In this document: positions 11,207 to 60,258 of the stretch, one piece after another
How the letters are laid out: every line of letters starts with the position of its first letter
Position numbering within the stretch: the stretch's first letter is position 1
DNA from: an uncultured Bacilli bacterium
GTDB taxonomy: Bacteria; Bacillota_I; Bacilli_A; RF39; UBA660
Assembly: GCA_947629325.1 (NCBI GenBank)
Contig: CANRDE010000001.1
Coordinates: 4,028 to 68,027 of the forward strand
Direction: 5' to 3'
Length of the DNA stretch: 64,000 nt
The notes under the pieces: model-generated
Told to the model about the DNA's origin: nothing
The model's database searches: none
What the model saw: only the letters and a program-made list of their open reading frames with translations
Made by a program: the position numbers and the translations under genes

Positions 11207-12538
11207 TTATTTGCGCTCCTTTTTGGGTTTTCTAGTCAAAGTTGGTAACTTAGCAAGTTCTATATTGCCATCTGTTCCTTCGCAATATTTAATATATCTT
11301 TCAATTTGGGAATTTTTACTTTCCGGAATCGGTATTTCTATCTCAATATTTAAAGAAGAAAATAATTTTATAAATTCCATTACTAGTTCTTCATCATATC
11401 GAACACTATTTACTAATTCAGTCGCCACTTCTTTAAATTCATTTTGTAGTTCTTTATCCGCTAATTTAGCTTTTAACGCTAAAATTTCAGGCGCTTCAAA
11501 ATCATTTAAAAGTTTTCCTAAAATATTAGAACATTGATTATTAATAAAATATTGATTAGTTAAAATTAAATATGTACATTTAGCTTTAGCATAAGTGACA
11601 CACGCGTTAATAATACTTACTCCTTCCACAGCCAAAAGTTCATTAATTTTATATAAATCTTCTAAAACAGCGTAAGCATAACTTGCATTAAAATACTGTT
11701 TAGAGCTATTCATAAGATAAGCTAATTTCATTTCGGTATTATCTTCAATATAGGTTTTATTGGTCATGACTTTTAAAGCAAATTCCGCATTAAAATCATT
11801 TAGAGACTCACTAAATATTTTCGCTGCTGGTAAAACACCACTAGATTTGATTTCATTAACAACAGAGATATATGTAAAAAAGCAATCTATATTATTTACA
11901 TTTTGACATTTAGCCATAATCTTTAAGACAGGAAGCGCTAATCCCATTTTTAAAAGCCAATTTTGTTTCAAAATAGAGAACAATTTATGAAGCAGTTCTT
12001 CTGATTCAATAGAGCTAAAAATAGTAGCAATTTCAAATGGTTCACAATTTTCATATTGGGAATCCATAAGAACCATTCTAATATATTTACTATTAGAATT
12101 ATTTTTGGCTTTACCAAAGATTTTTAAGGCTTTTATAATAAATTCATCGCCTTTTTCTTTATTATTTTCCAAAAACCAAATAATATAGGAAAAATTAGTA
12201 TTTGATTCAGAATCAGCGATTATTTGAAAGGCGGTTTCAATTACCGAAAGAGAAATACCATTAATATTAGCAATATTTTCCATAACAGAAATATTATTTT
12301 GATTTTGGCATTTTTTCATATTGTCTATCAATATTTTTAAGAAAGTAAATAGATAATCTTTATTTTTATCTTTAAACTTTAAAGCATATTTTATCGCTAT
12401 ACTAAAATATTTATAATCTATAAAATTAATCTTTTCCAAAACTTGTTCATCAATTTTTAAAATTTCCTTTATTTGAGTTTCCGAATATCTTAAGCTTTCC
12501 ATTTTTTTTAACAAATCTTTTGCCACTTTTGCATTCAT
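11207..12538 (-). CDS. hypothetical helical protein (443 aa)
   Basis: Long ORF. A hairpin plus T-run terminator follows its stop (about 11188..11222). Confidence 0.5.
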   Translation of the reverse strand: MNAKVAKDLLKKMESLRYSETQIKEILKIDEQVLEKINFIDYKYFSIAIKYALKFKDKNKDYLFTFLKILIDNMKKCQNQNNISVMENIANINGISLSVIETAFQIIADSESNTNFSYIIWFLENNKEKGDEFIIKALKIFGKAKNNSNSKYIRMVLMDSQYENCEPFEIATIFSSIESEELLHKLFSILKQNWLLKMGLALPVLKIMAKCQNVNNIDCFFTYISVVNEIKSSGVLPAAKIFSESLNDFNAEFALKVMTNKTYIEDNTEMKLAYLMNSSKQYFNASYAYAVLEDLYKINELLAVEGVSIINACVTYAKAKCTYLILTNQYFINNQCSNILGKLLNDFEAPEILALKAKLADKELQNEFKEVATELVNSVRYDEELVMEFIKLFSSLNIEIEIPIPESKNSQIERYIKYCEGTDGNIELAKLPTLTRKPKKERK

Positions 12539-32896: not shown

Positions 32897-33496
32897 TTAT
32901 TTTCCTTGCTCTCTTGTTCTTTTTAAAGCTGATGATTTAGTAGGAAATACTTCACTTAGAAATATATCTAAAATAGCTTCTGCTGGCACTTGATTATTTA
33001 ATGTTTCTGATATTACTGAAGATAATTTGCCTAATTGTTCCTCAATATTTGGAACATTTTCTTGAGGAGTATTGGTCATTATATCTTCAAAAGGAATAAA
33101 CTCTTCTGTATCGGTAAGTTCTACTCTTTTGCAATATATTTGTCGAGGACCATTATTTACAAATTTTTGTCCTATTTCATAGCCAACATTATTATAAGAT
33201 ATTCTAAAAAAATATTTGTTATCTTGCAATACTGGATAAATATAATTATTAAAAGCATAAAGACCAATTCCTTCGTGGAAAAATTCTAAATCTTTAACAT
33301 TCCTCATATCACTAACTTGAATTGGCGTGGCAAAATATTGCCAAGCATTAGAAGAAAACTCAGGAAATTTATCAGTAAAATGTTGAAGCCAACAAATATA
33401 TTCTTCACTTTCAAATGCATAAACATATTTATCTATCCATCTTTCTTTTCTTTCTTCATCAGTTACAATGGTTTTATTTAATTGTTCTTTTGCCAT
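32897..33496 (-). CDS. hypothetical protein (199 aa)
   Basis: Long ORF; no motif recognised. Confidence 0.45.
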   Translation of the reverse strand: MAKEQLNKTIVTDEERKERWIDKYVYAFESEEYICWLQHFTDKFPEFSSNAWQYFATPIQVSDMRNVKDLEFFHEGIGLYAFNNYIYPVLQDNKYFFRISYNNVGYEIGQKFVNNGPRQIYCKRVELTDTEEFIPFEDIMTNTPQENVPNIEEQLGKLSSVISETLNNQVPAEAILDIFLSEVFPTKSSALKRTREQGK

Positions 33497-40116: not shown

Positions 40117-41310
40117 TTATTTTTGTTCTTTAGAATTTTTTTTAAGTGTTAAGTTTGGAATTATTTTTCGAGTATTTATTTCTTCATTTGGCATATTTTC
40201 TACTACTTTTATTAAATCAGTAACAAACTGATCTTTATTATTTTCTTTTTTATTGATTATTCCTTCTATTAAATCATTAAAATGAGGATTGAAAGAAATA
40301 CATTGATTATTTTCTAAATATATTTCTAGTTTTAATTCTCTACCTAATATCATTTTAGAAAGATTATTAAAAGTTTTATACAAACTTAAATTTTTTAAAA
40401 CTAAACTCTTTAAATATTCATACATTCTTTCTTTTTCATCTTCAGAAGTTAAGACTTGTTTTAATGCTAATAAATCTTCTTTACTTCCCGCAATAATTTT
40501 AACTAATTTAAACGCTACTTCTAAATTTTCTCCTAACAAAAGATACGTGCTTCTTAAATCTATAATATCTTCTATACCATTTATTGCTTTGGCCATTTCT
40601 AATGCGGCATCATAATCCACTATTGGTCCTTTTTCATAATACCTTAAAATACATTTGGCATTAAATTCTTGAGGAGATTCTTTTAAAATTTGAACAAATG
40701 ACAGAATAAAATTTAAATCAACCCTATTTTCGTTATGCAAAAAAACACTTATTAAAAATATACTAATATATTCAGAATTAAATTCTTGTTTAGTATCTTT
40801 TAAGATATTAGCCAATAATAAACTTATACCTGATTTTAAAATATTTTCATTTATTAAAATGTTACTAATTTTATAACCATTAAAACTACCTTTTACAGTA
40901 CTAACTATTTTAGCCCCCTCTAAAGCAACACCATAATTTATTGCATTAACATCAGTTAATATTTCACATGCTGCTATGGCATTTGCCTCTAAATCTATAG
41001 TATTTATTATTTTTGCTCCTTCTAATGCTATATTTTCCCTAATCGCTTTTTTGTTTAATAAAATATTAACTACATAGTCTCTTTGCATAGAATTACTATT
41101 TTGGAAAATGTTTAAAGCTTCGCATATTTCATCTACTGTTTTATATGGAGAAATAGCAATTTCAATTCCATCTCTTATAAGAGATTCATCTAAATTTTTT
41201 ATTTTAATTAATATTCTATAACTTTTTTGTAATAATTTTTTTAATTTAGTGGGAGGAATATGAAGACCATTAAGTTTATATAGTAATGATAACATTAACT
41301 CTTTTTTCAT
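40117..41310 (-). CDS. repeat protein, paralog A (397 aa) of a three-gene tandem family
   Basis: Contains ~35-aa repeats with core G(I/V)ALEGAKI(I/V)..(S/T)....FN. N- and C-terminal domains are shared with 42757..43767. Confidence 0.6.
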   Translation of the reverse strand: MKKELMLSLLYKLNGLHIPPTKLKKLLQKSYRILIKIKNLDESLIRDGIEIAISPYKTVDEICEALNIFQNSNSMQRDYVVNILLNKKAIRENIALEGAKIINTIDLEANAIAACEILTDVNAINYGVALEGAKIVSTVKGSFNGYKISNILINENILKSGISLLLANILKDTKQEFNSEYISIFLISVFLHNENRVDLNFILSFVQILKESPQEFNAKCILRYYEKGPIVDYDAALEMAKAINGIEDIIDLRSTYLLLGENLEVAFKLVKIIAGSKEDLLALKQVLTSEDEKERMYEYLKSLVLKNLSLYKTFNNLSKMILGRELKLEIYLENNQCISFNPHFNDLIEGIINKKENNKDQFVTDLIKVVENMPNEEINTRKIIPNLTLKKNSKEQK

Positions 41311-41434: not shown

Positions 41435-42745
41435 TCATTTTTCCGTATTATCTGATTTTCTGTTTTCTCGGATTAATTTTAAAGCTATATCACAAGAAGA
41501 AATATTTTGATCCGGCATATTTTCAACTACTTTTATTATATCAGATATTGCATCACTATTAGTTTTCCTACTTGCTTTTGATTCTTGATCTAATCTTATT
41601 TCTTCATTCAACAAAGATTTGGCTAAGATATTAGCAGTTAAAATAAAGTGAGGATTTTCTAAAACTAAATTTCTTAAATATAAATATATTTCTGTCCTCT
41701 TTTCGCTAGAATTTAATTCGCTTTTTAAATTATCTAAATCCTTTTTTGATCCCATTAATATTTTTATCATATTAAAAGATAAAAGAGACTCTTGAGACAA
41801 TAAATATACATAATTATAATTTACTTGGTGAAATTCAAACATTCTAGCCGTCTTTAATACCTCCATCGGATTAATAATGGAAAGCATTTTAAAAAGTTTA
41901 ACAACACAGCGAGCTGCATTTGGATTTAAACAATTATTAACAATTTTAACCCCTTCCAAAGCAATACCACTGGTGATAGCCATATTATTTCTTAAAATAT
42001 CATACCCGCACTCTGCATTATATGGATTCAAAGATTTTGCTATAATTTGAGCCGCATCTAAAGCAATTCCCGCTTTTATTAAATTTTCATTATTTAAAAT
42101 ATTTTTGATAAAAAAGGCATTAAATTCATTTTGAGACCGACTAATTATTTTAGCCCCAGAAATAGCTAAAGCAGCTTTATTCATTTTTTCATCAATTAAA
42201 AAATAATAAATATATTTTGCTTGAAATTCTTCTGAAGCTTGACTAAGTATTTTAACTCCTTCCATATTGATAGTATTAACTTCTTTAAATAACAAATATT
42301 TTAAAAGGTAATAAGCATTAGATATATTAATAGTTTCATTAATTAATTTAGCATACTTTAAAGCAATTCCCGCCTGCAAAAACGATTTGTTTTGTAAAGC
42401 TTCAGTAACAAATCGCGCATTAAAAGTTTGCTTAGATGATCTTATTAGATAAGCCCCTTCTAATGCTAGTCCCATTTTTATAATATTTTCATCTTGCAAG
42501 ACGCACCTTATATAACATCTATTAGTTGTGGATTGCTTTAATATTCGCAAAGCTTCTAAAATAGTATTAATATTATCATAAGGGGCTAAGATTATTTTAA
42601 CACTATCTTCTATTAGGGACTCTTCCATGTTATTTAATTCTCTTAATAATAATTCTTCCTTAGTTAGCAAAATCTCGACATCGTCAACATTAATATGTAA
42701 TTTTTGCATCTTTTTTAACAAAGACAAAATTATTTCTTTTTTCAT
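41435..42745 (-). CDS. repeat protein, paralog B (436 aa), five repeat units
   Basis: Same architecture as paralog A but more divergent. Repeats GLALEGAYLI, GIALKYAKLI, ALAISGAKII, GIALDAAQII, GIALEGVKIV. Confidence 0.6.
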   Translation of the reverse strand: MKKEIILSLLKKMQKLHINVDDVEILLTKEELLLRELNNMEESLIEDSVKIILAPYDNINTILEALRILKQSTTNRCYIRCVLQDENIIKMGLALEGAYLIRSSKQTFNARFVTEALQNKSFLQAGIALKYAKLINETINISNAYYLLKYLLFKEVNTINMEGVKILSQASEEFQAKYIYYFLIDEKMNKAALAISGAKIISRSQNEFNAFFIKNILNNENLIKAGIALDAAQIIAKSLNPYNAECGYDILRNNMAITSGIALEGVKIVNNCLNPNAARCVVKLFKMLSIINPMEVLKTARMFEFHQVNYNYVYLLSQESLLSFNMIKILMGSKKDLDNLKSELNSSEKRTEIYLYLRNLVLENPHFILTANILAKSLLNEEIRLDQESKASRKTNSDAISDIIKVVENMPDQNISSCDIALKLIRENRKSDNTEK

Positions 42746-42756
42746 ATAAACCTTTT

Positions 42757-43767
42757 TTAATTACCTTGATTATCAAAAGGATTTTTAAGAGTTAATTGGA
42801 GCTCATCAGGCATATTAATAGATGCTTTTATTAAGTTTGCAACATCAGGATTAATAGGAGTAATATATCTAATAAATTTTGCTTCGATAATTATTTCTCT
42901 ACCTAATATAATTTTAGAAAGATTATTAAAAGTTTTATACAAATTTAAATTTTTTAAAACTACACTTTTTAAATATTCATACATTCTTTCTTTTTCATCT
43001 TCAGAAATTAAGACTTGTTTTAAAGCTATTAAATCTTCTTTTCTTCCTGCAATAATTCCAATTAATTTAAACGCTACTTCTAAATTTTCTCCTAACAAAA
43101 GATACGTGCTTCTTAAATCTATAAAATCTTCTATACCATTTATCGCTTTGGCCATTTCTAATGTGGCATCATAATCCATTATTGGCCCTTTTTCATAATA
43201 CCTTAATATACATCTAACATTAAATTCTTGAGGAGATGCTTTTAAAATTTGAACAAATGACAGAATAAAATTTAAATCAATATTATTTTCATTAGTCTCA
43301 AAAACTTTTGTTAAAAATTCACATATATAACTAGAATTAACACTTTGTTTAGTATCTTTTAAGATATTTGCCACCATTAAACCAATTCCAGATTTTAATA
43401 TATTTACATTAGTTAAAATACGACTAATATGACTACCATTAAAACTATCTTTTACAGTACTAATTATCTCAGCTCCTTCTAAAGCTATTCCTTTCTTAAT
43501 TGCTTCTTTATTTAATAAAATCATAACTACGTAGTCCCTTTGCATAGGATCACTATTTTGATAAATATTTAAAGCAGTAATTATTTCCTCGGTAGTTTTA
43601 TATGGAGAAGTGGCAATTGCAATTCCTTCTTCTATAAGAGGCTCATCTAAATTATTTATTTTAATTAATACTTCACTACTTCTTTGCATTAATTTTTTTA
43701 ATGTAATAGGTGAAAAATTATAACCTTGCAATTTATTTAATAAAGATACTATTAATTCTTTTTTCAT
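42757..43767 (-). CDS. repeat protein, paralog C (336 aa)
   Basis: Near-duplicate of paralog A; long identical nucleotide runs are visible. Only 11 nt separate it from paralog B. Confidence 0.6.
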   Translation of the reverse strand: MKKELIVSLLNKLQGYNFSPITLKKLMQRSSEVLIKINNLDEPLIEEGIAIATSPYKTTEEIITALNIYQNSDPMQRDYVVMILLNKEAIKKGIALEGAEIISTVKDSFNGSHISRILTNVNILKSGIGLMVANILKDTKQSVNSSYICEFLTKVFETNENNIDLNFILSFVQILKASPQEFNVRCILRYYEKGPIMDYDATLEMAKAINGIEDFIDLRSTYLLLGENLEVAFKLIGIIAGRKEDLIALKQVLISEDEKERMYEYLKSVVLKNLNLYKTFNNLSKIILGREIIIEAKFIRYITPINPDVANLIKASINMPDELQLTLKNPFDNQGN

Positions 43768-46016: not shown

Positions 46017-46437
46017 TCAACATCTTCTCCTGCAACTCAAACATTATTTCTTCCTCTTCTTTGTTCATATGATCATAACCAAGTAAATGTAAAAGGCCAT
46101 GACAAGTTAAAAAGGCTAGTTCTCTTACTTCACTATGACCATATTCTTTAGCTTGAGCAATCATTCTAGGAATACATATATATATTTCTCCTAAAAATCG
46201 CATATTATTATACACTACTTTATCATTATCTTCAAATGCAAATGAAATTACATCAGTAATTCTATCAATATTACGATAATTTTTATTTAAATATTGGATT
46301 TTTTCGTTATCAACAAATACGATACTAAATGTAGCATTTTTAACTTTCTCATGTTTTAAAGTGCGTTTAATTAAATCATCTAAATAGCCATAATCTTTAC
46401 TATAACCATATTCATTTGTTATTTTATAATCTATCAT
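45988..46437 (-). CDS. ybeY: rRNA maturation endoribonuclease YbeY
   Basis: HxxxHxxGxxH zinc motif, seen as HGLLHLLGYDH. Confidence 0.9.
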   Translation of the reverse strand: MIDYKITNEYGYSKDYGYLDDLIKRTLKHEKVKNATFSIVFVDNEKIQYLNKNYRNIDRITDVISFAFEDNDKVVYNNMRFLGEIYICIPRMIAQAKEYGHSEVRELAFLTCHGLLHLLGYDHMNKEEEEIMFELQEKMLNEDERTKKE

Positions 46438-47063
46438 TTAAATATAACTCCCCAATACCCCAATATATATACGGCAAATAACAATATTAATACAAGGGAA
46501 ATAATATTATAAAATAATTCACTTTTAAAAATATCAGGTAAGTGACGATGAATAGCACTTAGACCAATGTATAGCAAATAACCACCTACACCACCAATTA
46601 AATTTAAAATTATATCATCAATATCAAATGATCTACCAATTTGCAATTGAACAAATTCTACGGCAATACTAGTCATTAAAGTTGTTATAATTATAGGCCA
46701 GATTTTTTTCGGATTAACATAAACTCCTATTAAATAACCAAATGGTAAAAAAATTAATATATTGCCAAAAACATTATAATTAAACATTTGAGTACCAAAT
46801 TTATACCGCATTATTTCTGAGAAAGGAATAATATTTACTCCTCCACTACTATTTATCTCCGTCATAGTTAAGATTTCAAATAAAAGCCAAATATAAATTA
46901 TAGAAATCAAATAACTTAATTCTTTATATAAACAAAATCTTTCACGATGATTACGCAAATAAAAAAATCGGATTAAGACAATTGCTACTATAAAAACCAC
47001 TAACATGGGCCAAATATTATTGAACACTTTCTGGATTAGATTGGACATTTGGAACCTCCTCAA
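46434..47063 (-). CDS. VanZ-family membrane protein
   Basis: Four TM helices. Motifs NIIPF and RSFDIDDIILNLIGGVGGY are typical of VanZ-like proteins. Confidence 0.65.
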   Translation of the reverse strand: MRRFQMSNLIQKVFNNIWPMLVVFIVAIVLIRFFYLRNHRERFCLYKELSYLISIIYIWLLFEILTMTEINSSGGVNIIPFSEIMRYKFGTQMFNYNVFGNILIFLPFGYLIGVYVNPKKIWPIIITTLMTSIAVEFVQLQIGRSFDIDDIILNLIGGVGGYLLYIGLSAIHRHLPDIFKSELFYNIISLVLILLFAVYILGYWGVIFK

Positions 47064-48201
47064 CTTTATCTAAGATACCAATATTTTCTTTCGTTACTAT
47101 AAATATCTCTAAGTATATTGTACTATCATTTACCTCTTTTTTCAAAACTTTTTTTAATAATATTTCTTCCTCTTCGTCTAAAGTTAATTTTATCTTTTCT
47201 AAAGCCAGTTTTAGGCCCTTATTATAGGCCTCTTCTTCCGTTAAATAATTAGTATCTAAAATGTATTCTTTTTCCTTTACTAAATTAATTTCAAAATCAT
47301 TTAATTTATATAAATTAGTAATCTCTTCTTTTTTATTTTTTATTCGGCTTTTAAAAATAGGAAACTTGTTTTCGTTAATTACTACATTAAAATTATATCG
47401 ATTTTTACCAGTATATTTAGTTTTAACTTCTTTAAAAGGAACCGTTATATTAACTGTATACCAAACTTCTCCATATATTTCGCCACTAGCACAAACCGTA
47501 TTTTTTATTTCTTCGTTATGAGTAATAGTACCTGATAAAATAATATCACCTTTTAAAACATAGTCATTTATTTCTTTTAAGGCTACGCCTCTATAAATAT
47601 TTAGACTGGTAATTTTAGCATCTGTACTAGCTATAATATTACAATTTTTATAATTTGTTGTTTCTTCTTTAACCGTTTTTTCGGTGACATTTACTATTAA
47701 AACTAAACCGCTATACTTTATCTCTAACCACTCTAAAGTATTTTTGTTATCATTTAATATTTTATTAACAATTTTTTCAATTTCTGAATGTTTCTTTTTT
47801 AAAGTTAATTTTTTAATTCCATTTTTTTCCAATTCTTTCATTACTAATTTTTGGACATTTTTATTTGGACTTTTTATTTCAATTTTAAAAATTAAATTAT
47901 TTACTAAAAATAATAAAATTATACTTAAAATAACTCCTACGGAAAAAAAGATATATTTTTTTATTATATCTAATATTTTTCGAAAACCAGAATTGCCAAT
48001 AATTTCTGTTTTATAACTAACTAAATATTTTTTGATTTTTTTATAATCAGAATAGGAAGTCTTAATTAAAATATCATTTTTATTTTTTTTATTATCATAT
48101 ACTGTAACTCCAATATCATTTAATTTGATTAATAAATTATAATAACTTTGAGCATCTATTTTAATCCAAATGATTTTTTCTCTATTCATAATTAAACTCA
48201 A
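47017..48201 (-). CDS. yqfD: sporulation protein YqfD (stage IV)
   Basis: Size and single-TM architecture fit YqfD. It is immediately downstream of and overlapping yqfC. Confidence 0.8.
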   Translation of the reverse strand: MSLIMNREKIIWIKIDAQSYYNLLIKLNDIGVTVYDNKKNKNDILIKTSYSDYKKIKKYLVSYKTEIIGNSGFRKILDIIKKYIFFSVGVILSIILLFLVNNLIFKIEIKSPNKNVQKLVMKELEKNGIKKLTLKKKHSEIEKIVNKILNDNKNTLEWLEIKYSGLVLIVNVTEKTVKEETTNYKNCNIIASTDAKITSLNIYRGVALKEINDYVLKGDIILSGTITHNEEIKNTVCASGEIYGEVWYTVNITVPFKEVKTKYTGKNRYNFNVVINENKFPIFKSRIKNKKEEITNLYKLNDFEINLVKEKEYILDTNYLTEEEAYNKGLKLALEKIKLTLDEEEEILLKKVLKKEVNDSTIYLEIFIVTKENIGILDKVEEVPNVQSNPESVQ

Positions 48202-48439
48202 CTTTCATTATAGTGCCATTTATTAATAATTCTTGTTTGGTCATTTGTTTTATTTTTAAATTATTACCCGTAATAATTATTTTTTTCCCTTCTAAAGAAA
48301 TAATTATTTCTTTATCACTCAATTTGTTTAATTTTTTATAATTAAAAACATGCAAATGATTTTCATATATAGTTATGAAATTTTCTAAATCATATAAAAA
48401 GCTTTTAAAACTGTCTCTGAAATTTAAATTTTTCATCAA
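48182..48439 (-). CDS. yqfC: sporulation protein YqfC
   Basis: 85-aa protein in the conserved position before yqfD, with YqfC-like beta-rich sequence. Confidence 0.75.
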   Translation of the reverse strand: MMKNLNFRDSFKSFLYDLENFITIYENHLHVFNYKKLNKLSDKEIIISLEGKKIIITGNNLKIKQMTKQELLINGTIMKVEFNYE

Positions 48440-48470
48440 TTAATTATATTTGCCATAAATTAAAAAAAGA

Positions 48471-48908
48471 CTATTTACTTAGTCTTTCTTTAACAATTGT
48501 ACTTACTTTTGTCATATCAGCATTATTTAATTTTTCATTTACATATTTCATTATTAATCCCATCTCTTTCATACTACTAGGATTAATTTCTTGAAAAGCT
48601 TCATCAATAACTCTTTTAATGTCTTCCATAGAAGCTTCTTCCGGTAAGTAACTATTTATAATAGCTATTTCTTTTCTTAAATTATCAGCAGTTTCTATTT
48701 TACCTAAATTTTCGTATTCCATTATAGAATCTTTTCTTTGTTTAATTTGTTTTTTCAAAACATTTATAACAACATCATCGGTTAATTCTTTTTTGTTATT
48801 AAGTGCCTCTAATTGCAAAGCACTTTTTATCATTCGAAGCACTGATAATTGAAATTTATCGCCACTCTTAAGGGCATTTACTAAATCAGTATTTATTTTT
48901 TCAAACAT
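48471..48908 (-). CDS. GatB/YqeY-domain protein
   Basis: 145-aa YqeY-family sequence, in the conserved position after rpsU. Confidence 0.85.
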   Translation of the reverse strand: MFEKINTDLVNALKSGDKFQLSVLRMIKSALQLEALNNKKELTDDVVINVLKKQIKQRKDSIMEYENLGKIETADNLRKEIAIINSYLPEEASMEDIKRVIDEAFQEINPSSMKEMGLIMKYVNEKLNNADMTKVSTIVKERLSK

Positions 48909-48919
48909 AAAATCTCTCC

Positions 48920-49105
48920 TTAATTATGATTTCTTTTGTGAGAATTTTTTATGCCTTCTTCTTTCTTAATTCTTCTTTCAACTCCTGGTTTAACATGGAA
49001 TTTTTTCTTTTTTAGTTCTGAAGGGACACCACTTCTCGCAACTTTTACTTTGAATTTTTTCAAAGCCATATCAATGTTGCCATTTTGAACTACAACCTTT
49101 GTCAC
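48920..49105 (-). CDS. rpsU: 30S ribosomal protein S21
   Basis: Basic 61-aa protein matching S21. GTG start with an AAGGGAGGG RBS. Confidence 0.9.
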   Translation of the reverse strand: MTKVVVQNGNIDMALKKFKVKVARSGVPSELKKKKFHVKPGVERRIKKEEGIKNSHKRNHN

Positions 49106-49138
49106 AAATTCGCCCTCCCTTCGCTTTTAACTGAGCCT

Positions 49139-49167
49139 ATTATACCACTTACCTTTAAATTTGACAA
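49139..49167 (-). promoter_or_regulatory. sigma-A-type promoter of rpsU
   Basis: Minus strand reads TTGTCA, 17 nt, TATAAT, about 35 nt upstream of the rpsU RBS. Confidence 0.55.
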
Positions 49168-49213
49168 CAACAAAAGCAATCATCTGTAAAAAATGTTGTA
49201 AATTAACGATTAA

Positions 49214-49366
49214 TTAACAATAATTTTTGGCAGCAATTCTTCTGATTGCACTTCCAACCGTTTTGCCTAAATCAAGAATTGTATTTATAAGTCTTGAAAC
49301 TGAATTTAATAAGGTTGAAGAAATCCCTCCACCTTGAATCAATAATAATTCTTCGTTTGTTAACAT
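49214..49366 (-). CDS. double-glycine-leader bacteriocin precursor peptide B (50 aa)
   Basis: Unlisted ORF MLTNEELLLIQGG|GISSTLLNSVSRLINTILDLGKTVGSAIRRIAAKNYC. The leader fits the LSxxELxxIxGG consensus (-12 L, -8 E, -7 L, -4 I, GG). AGGAGGT RBS. The mature peptide has a GxxxG motif and a C-terminal Cys. Confidence 0.7.
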   Translation of the reverse strand: MLTNEELLLIQGGGISSTLLNSVSRLINTILDLGKTVGSAIRRIAAKNYC

Positions 49367-49376
49367 TTTAACCTCC

Positions 49377-49520
49377 TTAATTACATTTTTTAGGATTAAT
49401 TATGCCGTCAATCACGCCAATAACAAAAACTGCGGCTGCTCCTATAATACCAGCAATCAATTTTAAACTAACTGCGCCACCTTCTACTGCTAACATTTCT
49501 TCATTATTTAAAATTTTCAT
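49377..49520 (-). CDS. double-glycine-leader bacteriocin precursor peptide A (47 aa)
   Basis: Unlisted ORF MKILNNEEMLAVEGG|AVSLKLIAGIIGAAAVFVIGVIDGIINPKKCN with an AGGAGG RBS. The mature peptide is hydrophobic, carries GxxxG motifs and has a C-terminal Cys. Confidence 0.7.
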   Translation of the reverse strand: MKILNNEEMLAVEGGAVSLKLIAGIIGAAAVFVIGVIDGIINPKKCN

Positions 49521-49531
49521 TATTACCTCCT

Positions 49532-49945
49532 CTATTTAAATAACTCTAAAATAAATTGCCAAATAGTTTGTTTACCATAATAAATTTCCACATCTCCTAT
49601 TTCATTATTATAAAAATCTTTTTCTAAAACTAAAAATATATCTTGATAGATAATATTTTTATCTAAACTATATTTTTCATATGAGTTAATGGTATACTCT
49701 GTTTTAGTACCATTGAAAGTCAAAGTATTTTGTTTTTTTATTTTATCAGAGAGTCTATTTTCTATTTGTATATGTAATAAATGACTTTCATAAATTCCAT
49801 AACATTTAATCTTTTTATCAATATAAAAGAAGTTGGCAATCACAATGAAGAAAACAATAAATGAAACTCCTATTACTAAAAGATAAATATATGGCCTTTG
49901 AACTAAATTTCTAAGTTTATAATAATTAATTTTGAAGTATTCCAT
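49532..49945 (-). CDS. small single-TM protein (137 aa); candidate immunity or truncated secretion-accessory protein
   Basis: N-terminal TM helix YIYLLVIGVSFIVFFIVIANFFYI. Overlaps the 3' end of the ABC transporter and sits directly upstream of the two peptide genes. Confidence 0.45.
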   Translation of the reverse strand: MEYFKINYYKLRNLVQRPYIYLLVIGVSFIVFFIVIANFFYIDKKIKCYGIYESHLLHIQIENRLSDKIKKQNTLTFNGTKTEYTINSYEKYSLDKNIIYQDIFLVLEKDFYNNEIGDVEIYYGKQTIWQFILELFK

Positions 49946-51986
49946 TTTGAACTCCTATGTCAATAATTTTGCTAAAACTTTTAGTTTGATTTTTATGAGA
50001 AATATAAATTATTGTTTTATCATTAAAATAATTTTTTATATTTTTTATGATCTTGTTTTCTAATTTAAAATCCACTTCACTTAACGCTTCATCCAAAATA
50101 ATAATATTGGCTTTCTTTAAAAGGCCTCTGGCTAAAATTATTCTTTGTTTTTCGCCACCTGAAACGTTCTGAGAATTTGGTTCAAGCAAAGAATTAAAAC
50201 GAAGTGTTTTTTTAGCTACAATCTCCTCAATACAGCAAATTTGACATATATCATTAAACAATTGCTCTTCAACTTCTCTATCAATTAAAATGTTTTCTTT
50301 GATAGTTCCAGTAAAAAGTTCTTCATTTTGGGATACATATAAAATATTATTTCTGATTGTTCCTATATCTATATCTTTGATGTTTTGATTACCAATATAT
50401 ATCTCCCCTTCATTTGAAACATATTCCTTATAAATTAGTTTACAAATGGTACTTTTTCCCGCTCCAGAAGGTCCATTTAACAAAACATGATCTCCCTGTT
50501 TGATTTGCAAAGTCAAATTTTTTAATATGCTTTTATAATTATTATATGAATAGTAGACATTAGCAAAAACAATATCACCATCTAAATAACATCCTTTATC
50601 ATCAATATTTTCTTCTTCAATATTTATAAATTCGGTTAACTTTGTAAAAGTTGCTTTAATAAAATTATATTTAGGTAACAAGCTAATAATATTACGCACA
50701 GGATCAATACAATAACCAAGAATAATATTAAATGTGAATAAATCAATGATAGATAAATTGCCTTGATAAATATTCCAAAACCCACAAGAATTAATCAAAA
50801 AGAAACAAAGTTCTAATAAGAAATCTTTACCTAAATTGGTTAGGTTGAAATATTTATTAAAATTATAAGTATTAAATAAGTATTTAGATAAACACTTTTC
50901 TATTTTTTCTAATATAATGTTATTTATATTTAAATTTTTAATACTATCTAACATCGTAATGTCTTCTACTATCATACTATTAAAATTGGTTTGATAATTA
51001 ATATTTTCTAAAATTCTTTGATATAAACTCTTACTAACCAAAAAACCATATAAAACGTATAAAACAATAAAGAGAAATAAAATAAAAGACAAGTTTTTAT
51101 TTATTATAAATAAAATAACTACAGTTATAAGTATCATTAAAGAGTTTACAAGATAAGAAACAAATATTTCGGAAAACAAGCTTTTTATATTAGCTAATTC
51201 ATCAATCCTTGTTACTATTTCTCCTACACTTCTTGTCTTGATACTATTAGAAGGAAGGTAAAAAATATGATGTAAAAACTCTGGATACAAATAAACATCA
51301 ATTAAATTACCCAAATGATTTTCATAATATTCTCGAATATATAAACTTAAAATTTTTAATAAAGTAAATATTGCAAATATTAAAATGAGCCATTTAAAAT
51401 ATTTATAATTTTCATTTAATAAATTGCTTCCTACTTTCAAATAATAACTACAAATTATAGCGATAATAGTCCAAATTATACTACTCATAACTATTTTCAT
51501 TATTAGAAACTTTTCCTGATTTAATATTTGTAAAAATAAGTTATTTATAGTAAGACCTTTGTCCATTTTAATAATTTTACCACGCGGTTTTACTAAAATA
51601 AGATGACCAGTAAATAAACTATTAAAAATAGTTAAAGATATTTTTTTATTTCCAACACTTGGATCCATTAAATATACAATGTTGTTTTTTACCTCTTTAA
51701 CTACAACAAAATGTTCTAAACCATTCTCTAAAGTTAAATGAGCTATTAAAGGAAATTCCAATTCACTTTTTGTAATGTCGCGCTCCAAAATCCCCAATGA
51801 ATCAAATCCCCATTTTTTAAAAGCATTTACAATATGGTAAGCATTAGTTCCATTTTTATCGGTAAAAGTATCTTCTCTTAATTTTTCTAGAGTCACATAA
51901 CCATTATAAAAAATAAATAACCATTGCATACAACATATACCACAATCTTTCAAATCTTTTTGTATAACAGGTTTAACTTTCATCAT
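49926..51986 (-). CDS. bacteriocin-processing ABC transporter with N-terminal C39 peptidase domain
   Basis: C39 catalytic motifs QKDLKDCGICC (Cys), LEHFVVV (His) and LMDP (Asp). Six-TM domain. Walker A GPSGAGKST, signature VSGGEKQR and Walker B IIILDE. Confidence 0.9.
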   Translation of the reverse strand: MMKVKPVIQKDLKDCGICCMQWLFIFYNGYVTLEKLREDTFTDKNGTNAYHIVNAFKKWGFDSLGILERDITKSELEFPLIAHLTLENGLEHFVVVKEVKNNIVYLMDPSVGNKKISLTIFNSLFTGHLILVKPRGKIIKMDKGLTINNLFLQILNQEKFLIMKIVMSSIIWTIIAIICSYYLKVGSNLLNENYKYFKWLILIFAIFTLLKILSLYIREYYENHLGNLIDVYLYPEFLHHIFYLPSNSIKTRSVGEIVTRIDELANIKSLFSEIFVSYLVNSLMILITVVILFIINKNLSFILFLFIVLYVLYGFLVSKSLYQRILENINYQTNFNSMIVEDITMLDSIKNLNINNIILEKIEKCLSKYLFNTYNFNKYFNLTNLGKDFLLELCFFLINSCGFWNIYQGNLSIIDLFTFNIILGYCIDPVRNIISLLPKYNFIKATFTKLTEFINIEEENIDDKGCYLDGDIVFANVYYSYNNYKSILKNLTLQIKQGDHVLLNGPSGAGKSTICKLIYKEYVSNEGEIYIGNQNIKDIDIGTIRNNILYVSQNEELFTGTIKENILIDREVEEQLFNDICQICCIEEIVAKKTLRFNSLLEPNSQNVSGGEKQRIILARGLLKKANIIILDEALSEVDFKLENKIIKNIKNYFNDKTIIYISHKNQTKSFSKIIDIGVQNGILQN

Positions 51987-52115
51987 TCTTTCCTCCCTTC
52001 ACTACTATTATTAGCTTCAACTAAAACTATTTCCTTTTAAATATAATAAATTTTTTTTAAAAGGTATTTTTTAGCTTTTTAAACATAATATTAAGTAGCG
52101 ATAAAGGAGAGCTAT

Positions 52116-52610
52116 ATGATAAACAAACAAAATTTATGGTTTATTACTTTATTTTCTTTAATACTTATCTTAGGAATTTATTATATTAGTATTGATGATG
52201 AGGTGGCAAGTGTGCTTAAAGCCGAAGATACTTCTAATGCCAATGAAGTTATTGAGATTAATGAATCTGATGTATTAGTGGCCTTAGAAATAGAAAATGA
52301 CGAGGAAAAGCAAGCCCTTATGGAAGAATATCAAAATATCCTTTTAGACACGGGAAGTACTTTAGAGGAAAAAAATGTTGCTTATGAAAATATGCAAAAA
52401 TTAAATAATTCCAAAGCCGAAGAAACTAAAGTGAAAAAATTAATTAAAGAAAAATTTGATTTAAATTCTTTTGTAAAAATTAAAGATAATACAATTAGTA
52501 TTACGGTGGCTTCAAAGGAACACAATACGGAAAAAGCTAATTCTATTATCCGAAGTGTGCAAGAATTATATGAATCAAAAATGTATATAACAGTAAAATT
52601 TAATAAATAA
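52116..52610 (+). CDS. SpoIIIAH-like membrane protein (tentative)
   Basis: N-terminal TM helix, an acidic linker, and a C-terminal segment NTISITVASKEHNTEKANSIIRSVQ that resembles the SpoIIIAH/YscJ-like ring-building domain. Confidence 0.4.
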   Translation: MINKQNLWFITLFSLILILGIYYISIDDEVASVLKAEDTSNANEVIEINESDVLVALEIENDEEKQALMEEYQNILLDTGSTLEEKNVAYENMQKLNNSKAEETKVKKLIKEKFDLNSFVKIKDNTISITVASKEHNTEKANSIIRSVQELYESKMYITVKFNK

Positions 52611-52631
52611 AAACAAAGATCTTGGAAAACT

Positions 52632-53369
52632 TTAATCTTTGTTTTTTTCTTTGGAAAAATCAATTAAATTTTGTAAATAAGAATCATTCTTATGCTCTTC
52701 ATAAAAATGAGGATTTAACCAAATAGCCTTAAAACTTTCCCATTTATTTTTAGCATTTATTTCACTAATATTTAATTTTTTTCCTTCTTGGGCTTTTTTG
52801 ACAAATTTTTGAGGACTAAATAATTCTAATAAATAACTTAATAAGGTTAAGGCTTCCATTAAAATAGCAGGTAATAATAAAATCATATATAAAGTATCTT
52901 TAGAAAAAGAAGAAATAGCACTAACCATTATATTAGGGAGAAAATGAAAACTAGATAAATCAGTCACTAAAAAGGTTAAAATAACACAAATAGCCAAAAT
53001 CCAAACCTTTAGTTTTCCAACTATATTAGATTGGATATTCAAATTTCTTTTATATTTATAAAATTGCACTATTATTATTAATAATTCAAAAATTATAGGT
53101 ATTAAAGCATAAGGAGTTATAAGATATAAAACAATAAAATTCAAAATAGTAAATAATTTATCAGCTACACTATCAAATAGAGCCCCAAAAAATGTTGAAC
53201 AATGCCATTTTCTAGCTAATAGGCCATCTAAACTATCAGTAAAATAACAGATTAAAGCTAATATTCCTGTTATAAAACCACCACAATTTTTATAAATTGG
53301 AACTAAAATTATAGTTCCAATAATTCTAATTAATGTTAAAATATTAATAATTATTAATTTTAAAGTCAA
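52632..53369 (-). CDS. CDP-alcohol phosphatidyltransferase family protein
   Basis: DSLDGLLARKW...GALFDSVADK fits the D-x2-DG-x2-AR...G-x3-D-x3-D signature. Confidence 0.8.
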   Translation of the reverse strand: MTLKLIIINILTLIRIIGTIILVPIYKNCGGFITGILALICYFTDSLDGLLARKWHCSTFFGALFDSVADKLFTILNFIVLYLITPYALIPIIFELLIIIVQFYKYKRNLNIQSNIVGKLKVWILAICVILTFLVTDLSSFHFLPNIMVSAISSFSKDTLYMILLLPAILMEALTLLSYLLELFSPQKFVKKAQEGKKLNISEINAKNKWESFKAIWLNPHFYEEHKNDSYLQNLIDFSKEKNKD

Positions 53370-53380
53370 TTAAATTCACC

Positions 53381-53998
53381 TCAATAAGCTATATCTGTTA
53401 TCTTACCAATATCACTATAATTTAAATTATAAATGTTTTCTCCTATTTTTATTTCGATATTGGTAATATCATTGTCATTAGTACTAATTATAATTTCTCT
53501 ATTATCTAATGTATATATATATTTATCATCTTCAATTTTATATTCTTGATTATTAATTAAATTTTTAATATTAGTTATATCCAATAGAGAACTATCTATT
53601 TCATTATAAAGAGTATCTATTTGAAATAAACCGCCATTTTTTACTTCATAAGTATAACCGTTTTCCTTAAAATATTGTAATTTTTCATCTAAAAATAAAC
53701 GATATCCACTTTCCCTATTATTCATTTTACTACCATTAAAAGTATAAGTTTTATCTCCTATATTAATTATATAGCTATATTTATAATTATCTGTTAATTT
53801 CGCTAATTTTTCTTCAAAAGATATTTTTTCAATAGTATTATTAGTTTCAGGAATAGTATTAACATCATTGTTAATATCTTTTTTTCCTCCAAATTTTACT
53901 ATAATTATTAAAACAATAATAAATATTAACCATAAGCTTAATTTTATGATTGGGACGGTTTTATCATTATCCTTCATCTTAAATACTCCTTTTACCAT
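53381..53998 (-). CDS. hypothetical membrane-anchored protein (205 aa)
   Basis: N-terminal TM helix then a Tyr/Asn/Ile-rich domain. Overlaps fmt by 20 nt. Confidence 0.5.
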   Translation of the reverse strand: MVKGVFKMKDNDKTVPIIKLSLWLIFIIVLIIIVKFGGKKDINNDVNTIPETNNTIEKISFEEKLAKLTDNYKYSYIINIGDKTYTFNGSKMNNRESGYRLFLDEKLQYFKENGYTYEVKNGGLFQIDTLYNEIDSSLLDITNIKNLINNQEYKIEDDKYIYTLDNREIIISTNDNDITNIEIKIGENIYNLNYSDIGKITDIAY

Positions 53999-58409: not shown

Positions 58410-58877
58410 TTATGTTATTATTTTATTAGCATTATCAAAATCCAAACTGGCGGTTTCTACAAAAATTTGACTGCCAATAATAGTGACTAAAGAAGTCAGA
58501 TAAGCATTATAATTCCTACTATAATCTATTTTTAATTCCACATTTATTTTTAACTGTTGACATATTTCATTAGCTTTCTTTATTAAATAAGCATTTGTTC
58601 CCATATTATCAGCATTGATAAATATGGTATAAATTCCTTCATAATCAGCAATATCATGAATGATTTTTAAAATGGTCAAAATATCTCCTTCAGTAATAAT
58701 AGTGGTGCCAACAATAGGATATTTCAAGGCTTTTTCATTGGGAAAAAATTCTAAATAATTTAATACTTCTTCTCCTGAAATGTTCAAATTTTCTCTGTTA
58801 TCAGCATTTATTAAAGTCAGAAATTTTTCTTTATTACTATTAATAATATCTACTAATCTCTTGTATAAACTATTCAT
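58410..58877 (-). CDS. hypothetical protein (155 aa)
   Basis: ORF overlapping the upstream 462-aa gene by 8 nt; second gene of a two-gene operon. Confidence 0.45.
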   Translation of the reverse strand: MNSLYKRLVDIINSNKEKFLTLINADNRENLNISGEEVLNYLEFFPNEKALKYPIVGTTIITEGDILTILKIIHDIADYEGIYTIFINADNMGTNAYLIKKANEICQQLKINVELKIDYSRNYNAYLTSLVTIIGSQIFVETASLDFDNANKIIT

Positions 58878-60258
58878 TATTATCCTCGCTATTTATAAAT
58901 TCTAAAGCATCTTCTATGCGATAAGTTCCATTTATTTCTTGGATTATATTTTTTTGCCAATTAGCCTCTGTGGAATGAAATATTCTCCTAAAATTGATGG
59001 CTTTAGTAAAGTACTTAGTTAAATTTAAAGCATCTATTTCACTCATAGTTATAAAATCATCAATATCTAAAATATAAGTGGCTGTTAAATTATTATTTAT
59101 ATTTTCTATTACTACTTTTCCATTAGAATAAATAAAGGCATAGTAATCATCTGCCCCTTTTAAAGGCGTTCCAATTAAAGTTTCTAAGTTAAATAAATAT
59201 GCAAAACGTTTTTTTATTTTGGAATCAGTAATAGTAACATCATCATTTTCAGAGGTAAATTGCCAATTGTTTTGATTGTTTAACTTAAATAATTTTTCCA
59301 TTAAATTAATATTTTTATACTTTTCGGAGTCTTCATCTAAGTTAAAATTAATTTTTTCTAAGGTAGGATGTTTAGCTATTAATTGTTTATAATCTTGAAA
59401 ATAATCATGAATATTATATCTTGCTATTTTTTTGTCTGGATATTCAAAAATAATTTCCGGATTATAAGATGAATCGCTTGCTAATATTTTATCTACAATT
59501 TTTTTATAGTATACCAAAAAATAATCTTTAGAGATGTCATCAGTATCACTTGCTTCTAAAATTATTTTTGCAAACAGTAAAAAGAAAATATCCGGGTCAA
59601 AACAAGCGTACAATTCCTCAATATTAATTTCTTTATCAAAAAAATCTTTTAAATTTAATAGTCCTTTTTCATATGCACAAGTTTCTTGATATAAATTTTG
59701 AATATAATCTTCAAATTCCATAGTATTTTTATAAGAGGAATAATCTTCTAATGCAACATCAAAATATTTAGAACTTATTTCATTTAATAAAATATCATTT
59801 AATTTTTCTTCTTTAATCTTTAAGGCTTCCGAATATAAAAGATTGATTTCATTATTGGCTTTAGAAATATTTTCTAAAAGATTCACTAAATAATTTTCAT
59901 ATTCTTCTTCGTCTTTTTCAAAACTATCAATTTTATTATTTAAAAAATAAGTAAGCTCTCGAAAAAAAGTTAACTTAGAAAATTTTAAACACCTTCCTAA
60001 ATTGTTTTCATTAGGAAGAGATACTAATTCAACTTGAAAATCTAAAATATGAGAATTATTAAAAATATTTAATAAAGGCTCTTGGTATATCTTCTTAAAA
60101 AAATCTTGAAATAAATTTTGCTCTTTATCTCCGTTTTTAATGACTTTAGCATTATTTATTAGATTTTTAATATTAAATGACCATTCCTCTTTGTATGATG
60201 GTATGGGATCAAATATTAAACGGGCATTACAATTGGAAATAGTCTTCTCAATAACCAT
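58870..60258 (-). CDS. hypothetical protein (462 aa)
   Basis: Long ORF, acidic and Asn/Tyr-rich; no motif recognised. Confidence 0.5.
   Translation of the reverse strand: MVIEKTISNCNARLIFDPIPSYKEEWSFNIKNLINNAKVIKNGDKEQNLFQDFFKKIYQEPLLNIFNNSHILDFQVELVSLPNENNLGRCLKFSKLTFFRELTYFLNNKIDSFEKDEEEYENYLVNLLENISKANNEINLLYSEALKIKEEKLNDILLNEISSKYFDVALEDYSSYKNTMEFEDYIQNLYQETCAYEKGLLNLKDFFDKEINIEELYACFDPDIFFLLFAKIILEASDTDDISKDYFLVYYKKIVDKILASDSSYNPEIIFEYPDKKIARYNIHDYFQDYKQLIAKHPTLEKINFNLDEDSEKYKNINLMEKLFKLNNQNNWQFTSENDDVTITDSKIKKRFAYLFNLETLIGTPLKGADDYYAFIYSNGKVVIENINNNLTATYILDIDDFITMSEIDALNLTKYFTKAINFRRIFHSTEANWQKNIIQEINGTYRIEDALEFINSEDNNE

Follow-up and report, generated by a model that had tools for sequence, protein, structure and literature searches.

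We analyzed a window of 64,000 nucleotides (nt) of genomic DNA from an uncultured Bacilli bacterium, with a G+C content of approximately 25%. On its minus strand lies a compact cassette comprising, in order, a C39-peptidase ABC exporter (PCAT), a 137–amino acid (aa) open reading frame (ORF), here called X, and the precursors of two double-glycine peptides, A and B, followed by rpsU (Table 1). Only 11 nt separate X from peptide A and 10 nt separate peptide A from peptide B, while the gap between peptide B and rpsU is 108 nt. Good Shine-Dalgarno sites can be read from the sequence for all three small genes (AGGAG, GAGGAGG, and AAGGAGG), the AGGAG lying 8 nt upstream of the X start.

Table 1. Features of the exporter-peptide cassette and of its surroundings in the 64,000-nt window.
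Feature	Position	Strand	Remarks
SpoIIIAH-like protein	52116-52610	+	164 aa; N-terminal TM helix; divergent from the PCAT gene
C39-peptidase ABC exporter (PCAT)	49926..51986	-	686 aa
X, single-TM ORF	49532..49945	-	137 aa; shares 20 nt with the end of the ABC gene
X parts (residues)	TM at nt ~49826-49888		Tail 1-19; TM ~20-40; beta-barrel 41-127; C-terminal helix 128-136
Peptide A precursor, double-glycine	49377..49520	-	47 aa
Peptide A leader	49476-49520	-	MKILNNEEMLAVEGG
Peptide B precursor, double-glycine	49214..49366	-	50 aa
Peptide B leader	49328-49366	-	MLTNEELLLIQGG
AT-rich hairpin, then AUUUUUU	49189..49220	-	Over the peptide B stop codon; from RNA folding of 49100-49220
Promoter-like site, TTGTCA-17-TATAAT with TG extension	49167..49139	-	11/12 matches, consensus match only; precedes rpsU
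rpsU, ribosomal protein S21	48920..49105	-	Invariant downstream neighbor; PF01165 on called genes of related loci
VanZ-like multi-TM protein	46434-47063	-	Inside the conserved yqfD-ybeY-dgkA-era operon at all related loci
ORFs without a Pfam family	11207-12538, 40117-41310, 41435-42745, 42757-43767	-	
ORFs without a Pfam family	58870-60258, 32897-33496, 53381-53998, 58410-58877	-	

This layout agrees with the first-pass annotation, which had described a 137-aa single-TM protein that overlaps the end of the ABC gene and precedes the peptides, and peptides that run straight into the rpsU promoter. The overlap is 20 nt long, X has one hydrophobic stretch (residues 20-42), and no ORF intervenes between peptide B and rpsU, either in the window or at any related locus. 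Possibly, the hairpin over the stop codon of peptide B separates the cassette from rpsU as a weak terminator. It escaped a terminator scan that requires G+C because its stem is almost devoid of G-C pairs. The RNA-fold z-score of the whole segment (49100-49220) was not significant, and an Rfam scan of 48500-52800 returned nothing real. A 25-aa ORF on the minus strand (49102-49179) that overlaps the rpsU promoter and ribosome-binding site was regarded as spurious, since the other loci showed no flagged counterpart.

The same annotation had stated that the locus lacks a recognizable immunity gene and a full-length HlyD-type accessory protein. We find the same: the cassette contains neither a recognizable immunity gene nor an LcnD/ComB-type accessory gene of ~450 aa, and a Pfam scan of 20 further window ORFs detected none of the HlyD/LcnD, Abi/CPBP, or EntA_Immun families. 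No regulatory genes occur in the locus, and there is no sensor kinase or regulator nearby. Eight window ORFs of 155 to 462 aa match no Pfam family at E ≤ 1e-4 (Table 1) and represent uncharacterized proteins of this lineage.

The exporter has a C39 peptidase domain, a six-helix membrane domain, and a nucleotide-binding domain (Pfam: Peptidase_C39, 4e-29; ABC_membrane, 3e-26; ABC_tran, 2.5e-27). Its translation retains intact motifs throughout: the catalytic Cys/His/Asp (DCG...HFVVV...DP), Walker A (GPSGAGKST), and the signature VSGGE. Among NCBIfam families, it scores 345.8 bits against TIGR01193, below the family cut-off, and 307.6 bits against NF045998, [quoted passage not shown] (cut-off 500). 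The first-pass annotation had presumed that canonical double-glycine exporters are paired with a ~450-aa accessory protein. This premise is too strong. Gram-positive PCATs function alone or with one accessory protein (PMC7018657), and the absence of a 450-aa accessory is thus not an anomaly in itself. A comparison case for a PCAT without an accessory protein is found on the Clostridium botulinum plasmid pRSJ13_1 (3051-6187), where a Blp-family bacteriocin gene accompanies a PCAT gene that no accessory ORF follows. Upstream, a multi-TM DUF6773 protein of 138 aa is encoded, a likely immunity candidate.

Both peptides carry canonical leaders that end in GG and have L-12, E-8, L/M-7, and V/I-4. 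The mature part of peptide A is a hydrophobic stretch of 32 aa with a conserved GxxxG (GVIDG) and a C-terminal NPxKC; its orthologs follow the pattern G-x-x-(D/N)-G...NPxKC. The mature part of peptide B is 37 aa long, amphipathic, and cationic, with a conserved GxxxGS (GKTVGS) and a C-terminal Cys, and its orthologs follow the pattern G-x-x-x-G-S...R and then a C-terminal Cys. Orthologous peptides are present at all related loci, and the GxxxG is invariant in the aligned orthologs of peptide A (10 loci) and of peptide B (11 loci). Peptide A matches Pfam Bacteriocin_IIc (21.9 bits), NF038034 (lactococcin G-beta/enterocin 1071B; 22.4 bits, cut-off 37), and TIGR03949 (lactobin A/cerein 7B; 18.6 bits, cut-off 21.5). 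One of its orthologs, at locus L010, passes the TIGR03949 cut-off with 25.0 bits. Peptide B has leader-level profile matches only.

A GxxxG in each peptide is a hallmark of two-peptide class IIb bacteriocins (PMC2850506). Peptides A and B would thus constitute a class IIb-type two-peptide pair, with presumed antibacterial activity. As in the class IIb loci of lactococcin G/enterocin 1071 and lactobin A/cerein 7B, two double-glycine precursor genes are adjacent, a dedicated C39-ABC exporter is encoded in the same operon, and each mature peptide has one GxxxG. There are also clear differences. Here, no immunity gene follows the peptides, whereas class IIb operons are described as always having one (PMC2850506), and there is no 450-aa accessory. 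Each peptide has a single conserved C-terminal Cys, and the locus occupies a fixed core-genome site by rpsU rather than a plasmid or a variable island.

The cysteines are consistently placed. At nearly all loci (the window, L006, L008, L010-L020, L023, and L030), each mature peptide has one Cys near its C terminus, within ...NPxKC(N) in peptide A and at the C terminus, or no more than seven residues from it, in peptide B. The exceptions are L021, the most distant locus, and L023, whose peptide B has a second Cys. This arrangement suggests a possible inter-peptide disulfide or another thiol-dependent step. Neither is known as a feature of class IIb bacteriocins. The cassette itself encodes no thiol-disulfide enzyme.

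X belongs to an orphan family. A word-indexed homolog search with X alone returned X itself as the sole match, and an exhaustive search was therefore needed: phmmer against 1.84 billion representative proteins recovered 40 relatives (a family of ~40 clusters). Those that look full-length are 131 to 154 aa long and align end to end. The dN/dS of X between close orthologs ranges from 0.06 to 0.33, which indicates purifying selection. Given these ~40 relatives of similar length and this range of dN/dS, X is a genuine gene and not a chance ORF. Five positions are near-invariant in an alignment of 36 sequences (N7, Y8, L11, G50, and E115), and the N-terminal tail has the motif (Y/F)xKxNYxKL within residues 1-19. 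The alignment contains no conserved Cys.

Profile searches assign X to no known family. Neither X nor its 36 relatives match Pfam, and the only exceptions among the relatives are sub-threshold NCBIfam matches to NF045999 (see below). X itself has a single, chance-level match in NCBIfam, to the oligopeptide permease Opp3C (E 0.031), and a profile built from the family matched no PDB sequence at E ≤ 10. Comparison with known immunity families, a check proposed in the first-pass annotation, gave a negative answer: neither X nor any of the 36 relatives matches a known class II immunity family in Pfam or NCBIfam.

AlphaFold run with the 36-sequence alignment gives a confident fold prediction for X (pLDDT 85.3, pTM 0.60). 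In the model, a brief N-terminal segment leads into a TM helix at residues 20-37. Six strands make up the beta domain that follows, with a short capping helix (63-70) between the second and third of them, and a further helix (128-136) lies at the C terminus. A single-sequence prediction (pLDDT 53, all helical) was poor and was discarded. Since basic residues precede the TM helix, the tail should be cytoplasmic and the predicted barrel external.

Foldseek searches of the PDB with this model gave nothing at E ≤ 0.001, all E-values being 0.03 or higher. Membrane-fusion proteins make up approximately 10 of the top 40 matches, at E ≥ 0.13: MacA (5nik_D, 3fpp, and 9qgy), MexA (6iok and 6ta5), CusB (3ow7), AcrA (2f1m), pneumococcal Spr0693 (5xu0), and TMexC (9j3d). 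The match to MacA 5nik_D has a probability of 0.98 and an E-value of 0.13, and the Foldseek output does not specify the MacA domain that is aligned. The TM-scores of the membrane-fusion matches, normalized by query length, do not exceed 0.38, and unrelated small barrels (HerA, PilZ, and riboflavin synthase) score similarly. The modeled ectodomain may weakly resemble a membrane-fusion-protein barrel. The top 50 matches include no SpaI/NisI-type structure.

The proteins that usually accompany such exporters offer a direct comparison. LcnD, ComB, and BlpB are HlyD-like proteins of ~450 aa, three times the size of X. The domain set of LcnD and ComB comprises a TM anchor, a lipoyl domain, a long alpha-helical hairpin, and a beta-barrel, whereas X would have only the TM helix and the barrel. 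Nevertheless, the X gene is LcnD-like in lying directly downstream of, and coupled to, the C39-ABC gene, and, like LcnD, ComB, and the Bacillus HlyD gene (compare LcnC-LcnD and the Bacillus PCAT-HlyD pair), it comes ahead of the peptide genes. The predicted topology of X is likewise LcnD-like, with the N terminus inside, one TM helix, and a domain outside, and the predicted barrel of X shares with the C-terminal barrel of LcnD a pattern of strand, short helix, and strand, followed by a terminal strand and helix.

The first-pass annotation had suggested comparing X with the LcnD/ComB N terminus, and this comparison yields no significant homology. We used a 456-aa accessory protein of the LcnD type encoded on a Lactococcus plasmid, a Bacillus HlyD-family protein, and 40 LcnD homologs, 18 sequences being aligned. 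hhalign of the X and LcnD alignments gives a probability of 6.8%. In the top-ranked alignment, X 6-56, covering just the tail, TM helix, and first strand, is matched to the N terminus and TM segment of LcnD; in an alternative one, X 46-137 runs collinearly with the C-terminal barrel of LcnD (347-456; E 0.05-0.18, not significant). Taken together, X maps as LcnD minus its middle, a correspondence that falls short of demonstrated homology. In a block-shuffle control, the observed hhalign score was reached by 3 of 60 shuffles. Real sequences scored no higher than decoys in HMMER comparisons of X with LcnD, and hhalign in global mode gave nothing useful. The profiles matched by LcnD homologs (TIGR01000, PF25935, PF25940, and PF25887) are matched by neither X nor its 36 relatives.

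A precedent for small accessory proteins that are not HlyD-like is provided by PedC/BrcD, thioredoxin-like bacteriocin transport accessory proteins of ~160 to 175 aa that are membrane-anchored and encoded beside a PCAT. X is also small, membrane-anchored, and encoded beside a PCAT. However, it has no thioredoxin fold, CxxC, or conserved Cys, it has no match to TIGR01295 (NCBIfam and Pfam searches), and its ectodomain is predicted to be all-beta. A thioredoxin-type accessory role was therefore rejected, on the basis of the absence of a conserved Cys across the X family.

The first-pass annotation had made no mention of what is the most informative feature of the locus, its fixed and vertically inherited place by rpsU. 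We looked up the genomic place of relatives with 23 to 46% identity to X (P0045, P0044, P0042, P0039, P0005, P0053, P0038, and P0052), and also examined ten species-level genomes (a genome scan with nine closer sequences) and one metagenome contig with the same layout. Gene order was judged at loci with enough DNA. All 10 independent relatives, including those whose X is as little as 23% identical, keep the four-gene order directly upstream of rpsU. At every locus, the ABC and X genes overlap or abut (20 nt in the window, and -2 to +26 nt across the 10 loci measured). X is the only additional gene of the cassette in the window, as the annotation had noted, and likewise in each of the relatives examined. 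The ten genomes from the scan are of uncultured Bacilli bacteria from rabbit-gut samples. We found no X relatives on viral contigs, and a phage origin of the module was therefore rejected. The same gene order next to rpsU, together with this absence from viral contigs, shows that the module is old and vertically inherited in a clade of uncultured low-GC gut Bacilli, and is not a mobile bacteriocin island.

Mean pairwise identity across 13 loci is 54% for the ABC protein, 36% for X, 41% for mature peptide A, and 39% for mature peptide B, against 70% for YqeY and 78% for Era. X and the peptides evolve much faster than these housekeeping genes. The divergence of X follows that of the ABC protein (partial r of 0.71 when controlling for YqeY and 0.87 when controlling for the peptides) more than that of the peptides (partial r of 0.48 to 0.49), although these figures, from the same 13 loci, are descriptive only because the pairs are non-independent and the peptides very short.

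A possible link to mycoplasmas comes from NCBIfam NF045999, “MAG1140 family protein” (126 positions), a family of similar length to that of X. Thirteen of the 36 X-family members match it at E ≤ 10, the best scores being 29.8 bits (P0019; E 5.4e-7) and 23.2 bits (P0008). The cut-off of 35 bits is reached by none of the 36, and the X of the window has no match at E ≤ 1. The matches with listed coordinates span the profile from position ~1-9 to 125-126. MAG1140 is a locus tag, which we take to be from Mycoplasma agalactiae. The accession adjoins NF045998, the mycoplasma PCAT family matched by the exporter of the window, and from this adjacency, its sole basis, we infer that mycoplasmas may carry a comparable pair of exporter and small protein. 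Literature on Mbov_0121 and MAG1140 comprises table entries only, with no function given.

We propose that X serves the C39-ABC exporter as a dedicated partner anchored in the membrane, a minimal accessory factor, and we give this proposal about an even chance of being right. Translational coupling would keep the synthesis of X matched to that of the transporter. Its cytoplasmic tail, with the NY..L motif, and its single TM helix would contact the transporter, while the barrel would sit over the outer face of the exporter, much like the membrane-proximal barrel of HlyD/MacA-type proteins but without the lipoyl and coiled-coil hairpin domains. In this position, X could help the two cleaved peptides to exit the transporter and to reach or clear the membrane of the producer.

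Several observations argue for an accessory role, and thus for one half of the earlier suggestion that the 137-aa protein provides immunity and/or a minimal accessory function. The X gene is coupled to the ABC gene at every locus, upstream of the peptides, and the same four-gene order recurs in 10 of 10 relatives. N7, Y8, and L11 are conserved in the tail, as expected for a contact with a partner in the cytoplasm or membrane. A TM helix with its N terminus inside, followed by a barrel, recalls membrane-fusion proteins and the topology of LcnD. In addition, X divergence tracks the exporter more than the peptides, the LcnD alignments are collinear (albeit non-significant), and 13 of 36 family members match NF045999, listed beside NF045998. 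Other results weaken this reading. Pfam, NCBIfam, hhalign, and HMMER against decoys reveal no significant similarity to LcnD, ComB, or HlyD. The Foldseek matches are weak and other barrels score alike; furthermore, PCATs can work alone (PMC7018657). Finally, the evolutionary rate of X is close to that of the peptides, which would fit an immunity protein too.

The rate of X (36% mean identity, against 39 to 41% for the peptides) is indeed among the reasons to consider that X is instead an immunity protein. Its external beta-domain might bind or sequester mature peptides at the producer surface, in the manner of LanI lipoproteins, or shield the receptor. X is the only cassette gene at all loci that encodes neither transporter nor peptide, and its modeled external domain would meet the secreted peptides. 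Nonetheless, we regard this as unlikely. Known class II immunity families are helical bundles or multi-TM proteins, an architecture unlike a single TM helix with a beta-barrel, and X matches none of these families. Coupled to the ABC gene and ahead of the peptides, its gene also occupies an unusual place for an immunity gene. The conservation of a cytoplasmic motif, a divergence that follows the exporter more than the peptides, and the lack of SpaI/NisI-type structures among the top 50 Foldseek matches also speak against immunity. On the other side stands the described constancy of an immunity gene in class IIb operons (PMC2850506). The function of the class IIb accessory protein has itself been called “not entirely clarified,” with possible roles in immunity and/or secretion (PMC2850506), and X could likewise combine both, serving export while protecting the producer, for example, by stopping released peptides from re-inserting into its own membrane. 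The evidence for an accessory role and that for immunity are each compatible with such a dual function, and the cassette holds no other immunity candidate. It is, however, the least parsimonious reading and is inseparable from the other two by sequence analysis, and we consider it quite improbable.

A further alternative is that the module is not primarily a weapon. The peptides might serve their own cell, through signaling or a membrane-active physiological role, with X as a specific component; no immunity gene would then be needed. The fixed chromosomal site, vertical inheritance across a deep clade (54% identity for ABC and 36% for X), and absence of relatives from viral contigs are consistent with this view, as are the lack of immunity and regulatory genes at the locus and the possible distant relatives in mycoplasmas. 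We nevertheless think it very unlikely. The peptides have class IIb hallmarks (paired genes, each with one conserved GxxxG), a peptide A ortholog passes TIGR03949, and no sensor kinase or regulator is found nearby. Moreover, core-genome bacteriocins are known.

The locus is thus a known kind of system, a PCAT with a class IIb-like peptide pair, in an unusual form, in which a small uncharacterized putative partner stands in place of the usual accessory and immunity genes and the whole is fixed by rpsU across a clade. If X is the partner of the exporter, a natural 137-aa version consisting of tail, TM helix, and barrel would offer a compact system in which to learn which part of an accessory protein is responsible for its function. 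This provides a first functional lead for the unnamed X family and possibly for the mycoplasma MAG1140 family. More speculatively, and with considerable doubt on our part, X and, by extension, the MAG1140 family could represent PCAT partners of a new class, each a “mini membrane-fusion protein” with a barrel only, the lipoyl and hairpin domains having been lost or never present, within an ancient, vertically inherited core module (an exporter and a Cys-terminated GxxxG peptide pair) common to low-GC gut Bacilli and Mollicutes. If so, such a protein would reveal which part of LcnD/ComB is needed for peptide export in single-membrane bacteria. The fixed position of the module by rpsU also shows that this uncultured gut lineage has kept the trait for a long time and did not acquire it recently as a weapon. 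This prompts the question of how the producers withstand peptides of their own making when no immunity gene is recognizable.

On the far side of the exporter, the upstream neighbor varies among loci. Most of them have a SpoIIIAH-like gene there; in the L006/L025 subclade, its place is taken by an unrelated gene of 218 aa. Because of this replacement, the SpoIIIAH-like gene lies outside the conserved block and was rejected as a part of the module. In the window, it is a stand-alone gene outside any spoIIIA operon, and it is kept in members that have yabP and yqfD. In the L006/L025 subclade, the 218-aa protein has no family and is followed upstream by rpsD, and yqeY, yabP/yqfC, and yqfD are absent between rpsU and the VanZ-like gene (compare 47017-48908 in the window). 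These may be relatives that lost sporulation-associated genes yet retain the module. L008/L016 (238-3758) has a 56-aa ORF between the SpoIIIAH-like and PCAT genes and, beyond the SpoIIIAH-like gene, a gene for an HTH regulator and two unknown genes (228 and 399 aa). These extra genes could be regulatory or immunity add-ons in that species. The placement of the VanZ-like gene inside the yqfD-ybeY-dgkA-era operon is unusual for a family associated with glycopeptide resistance.
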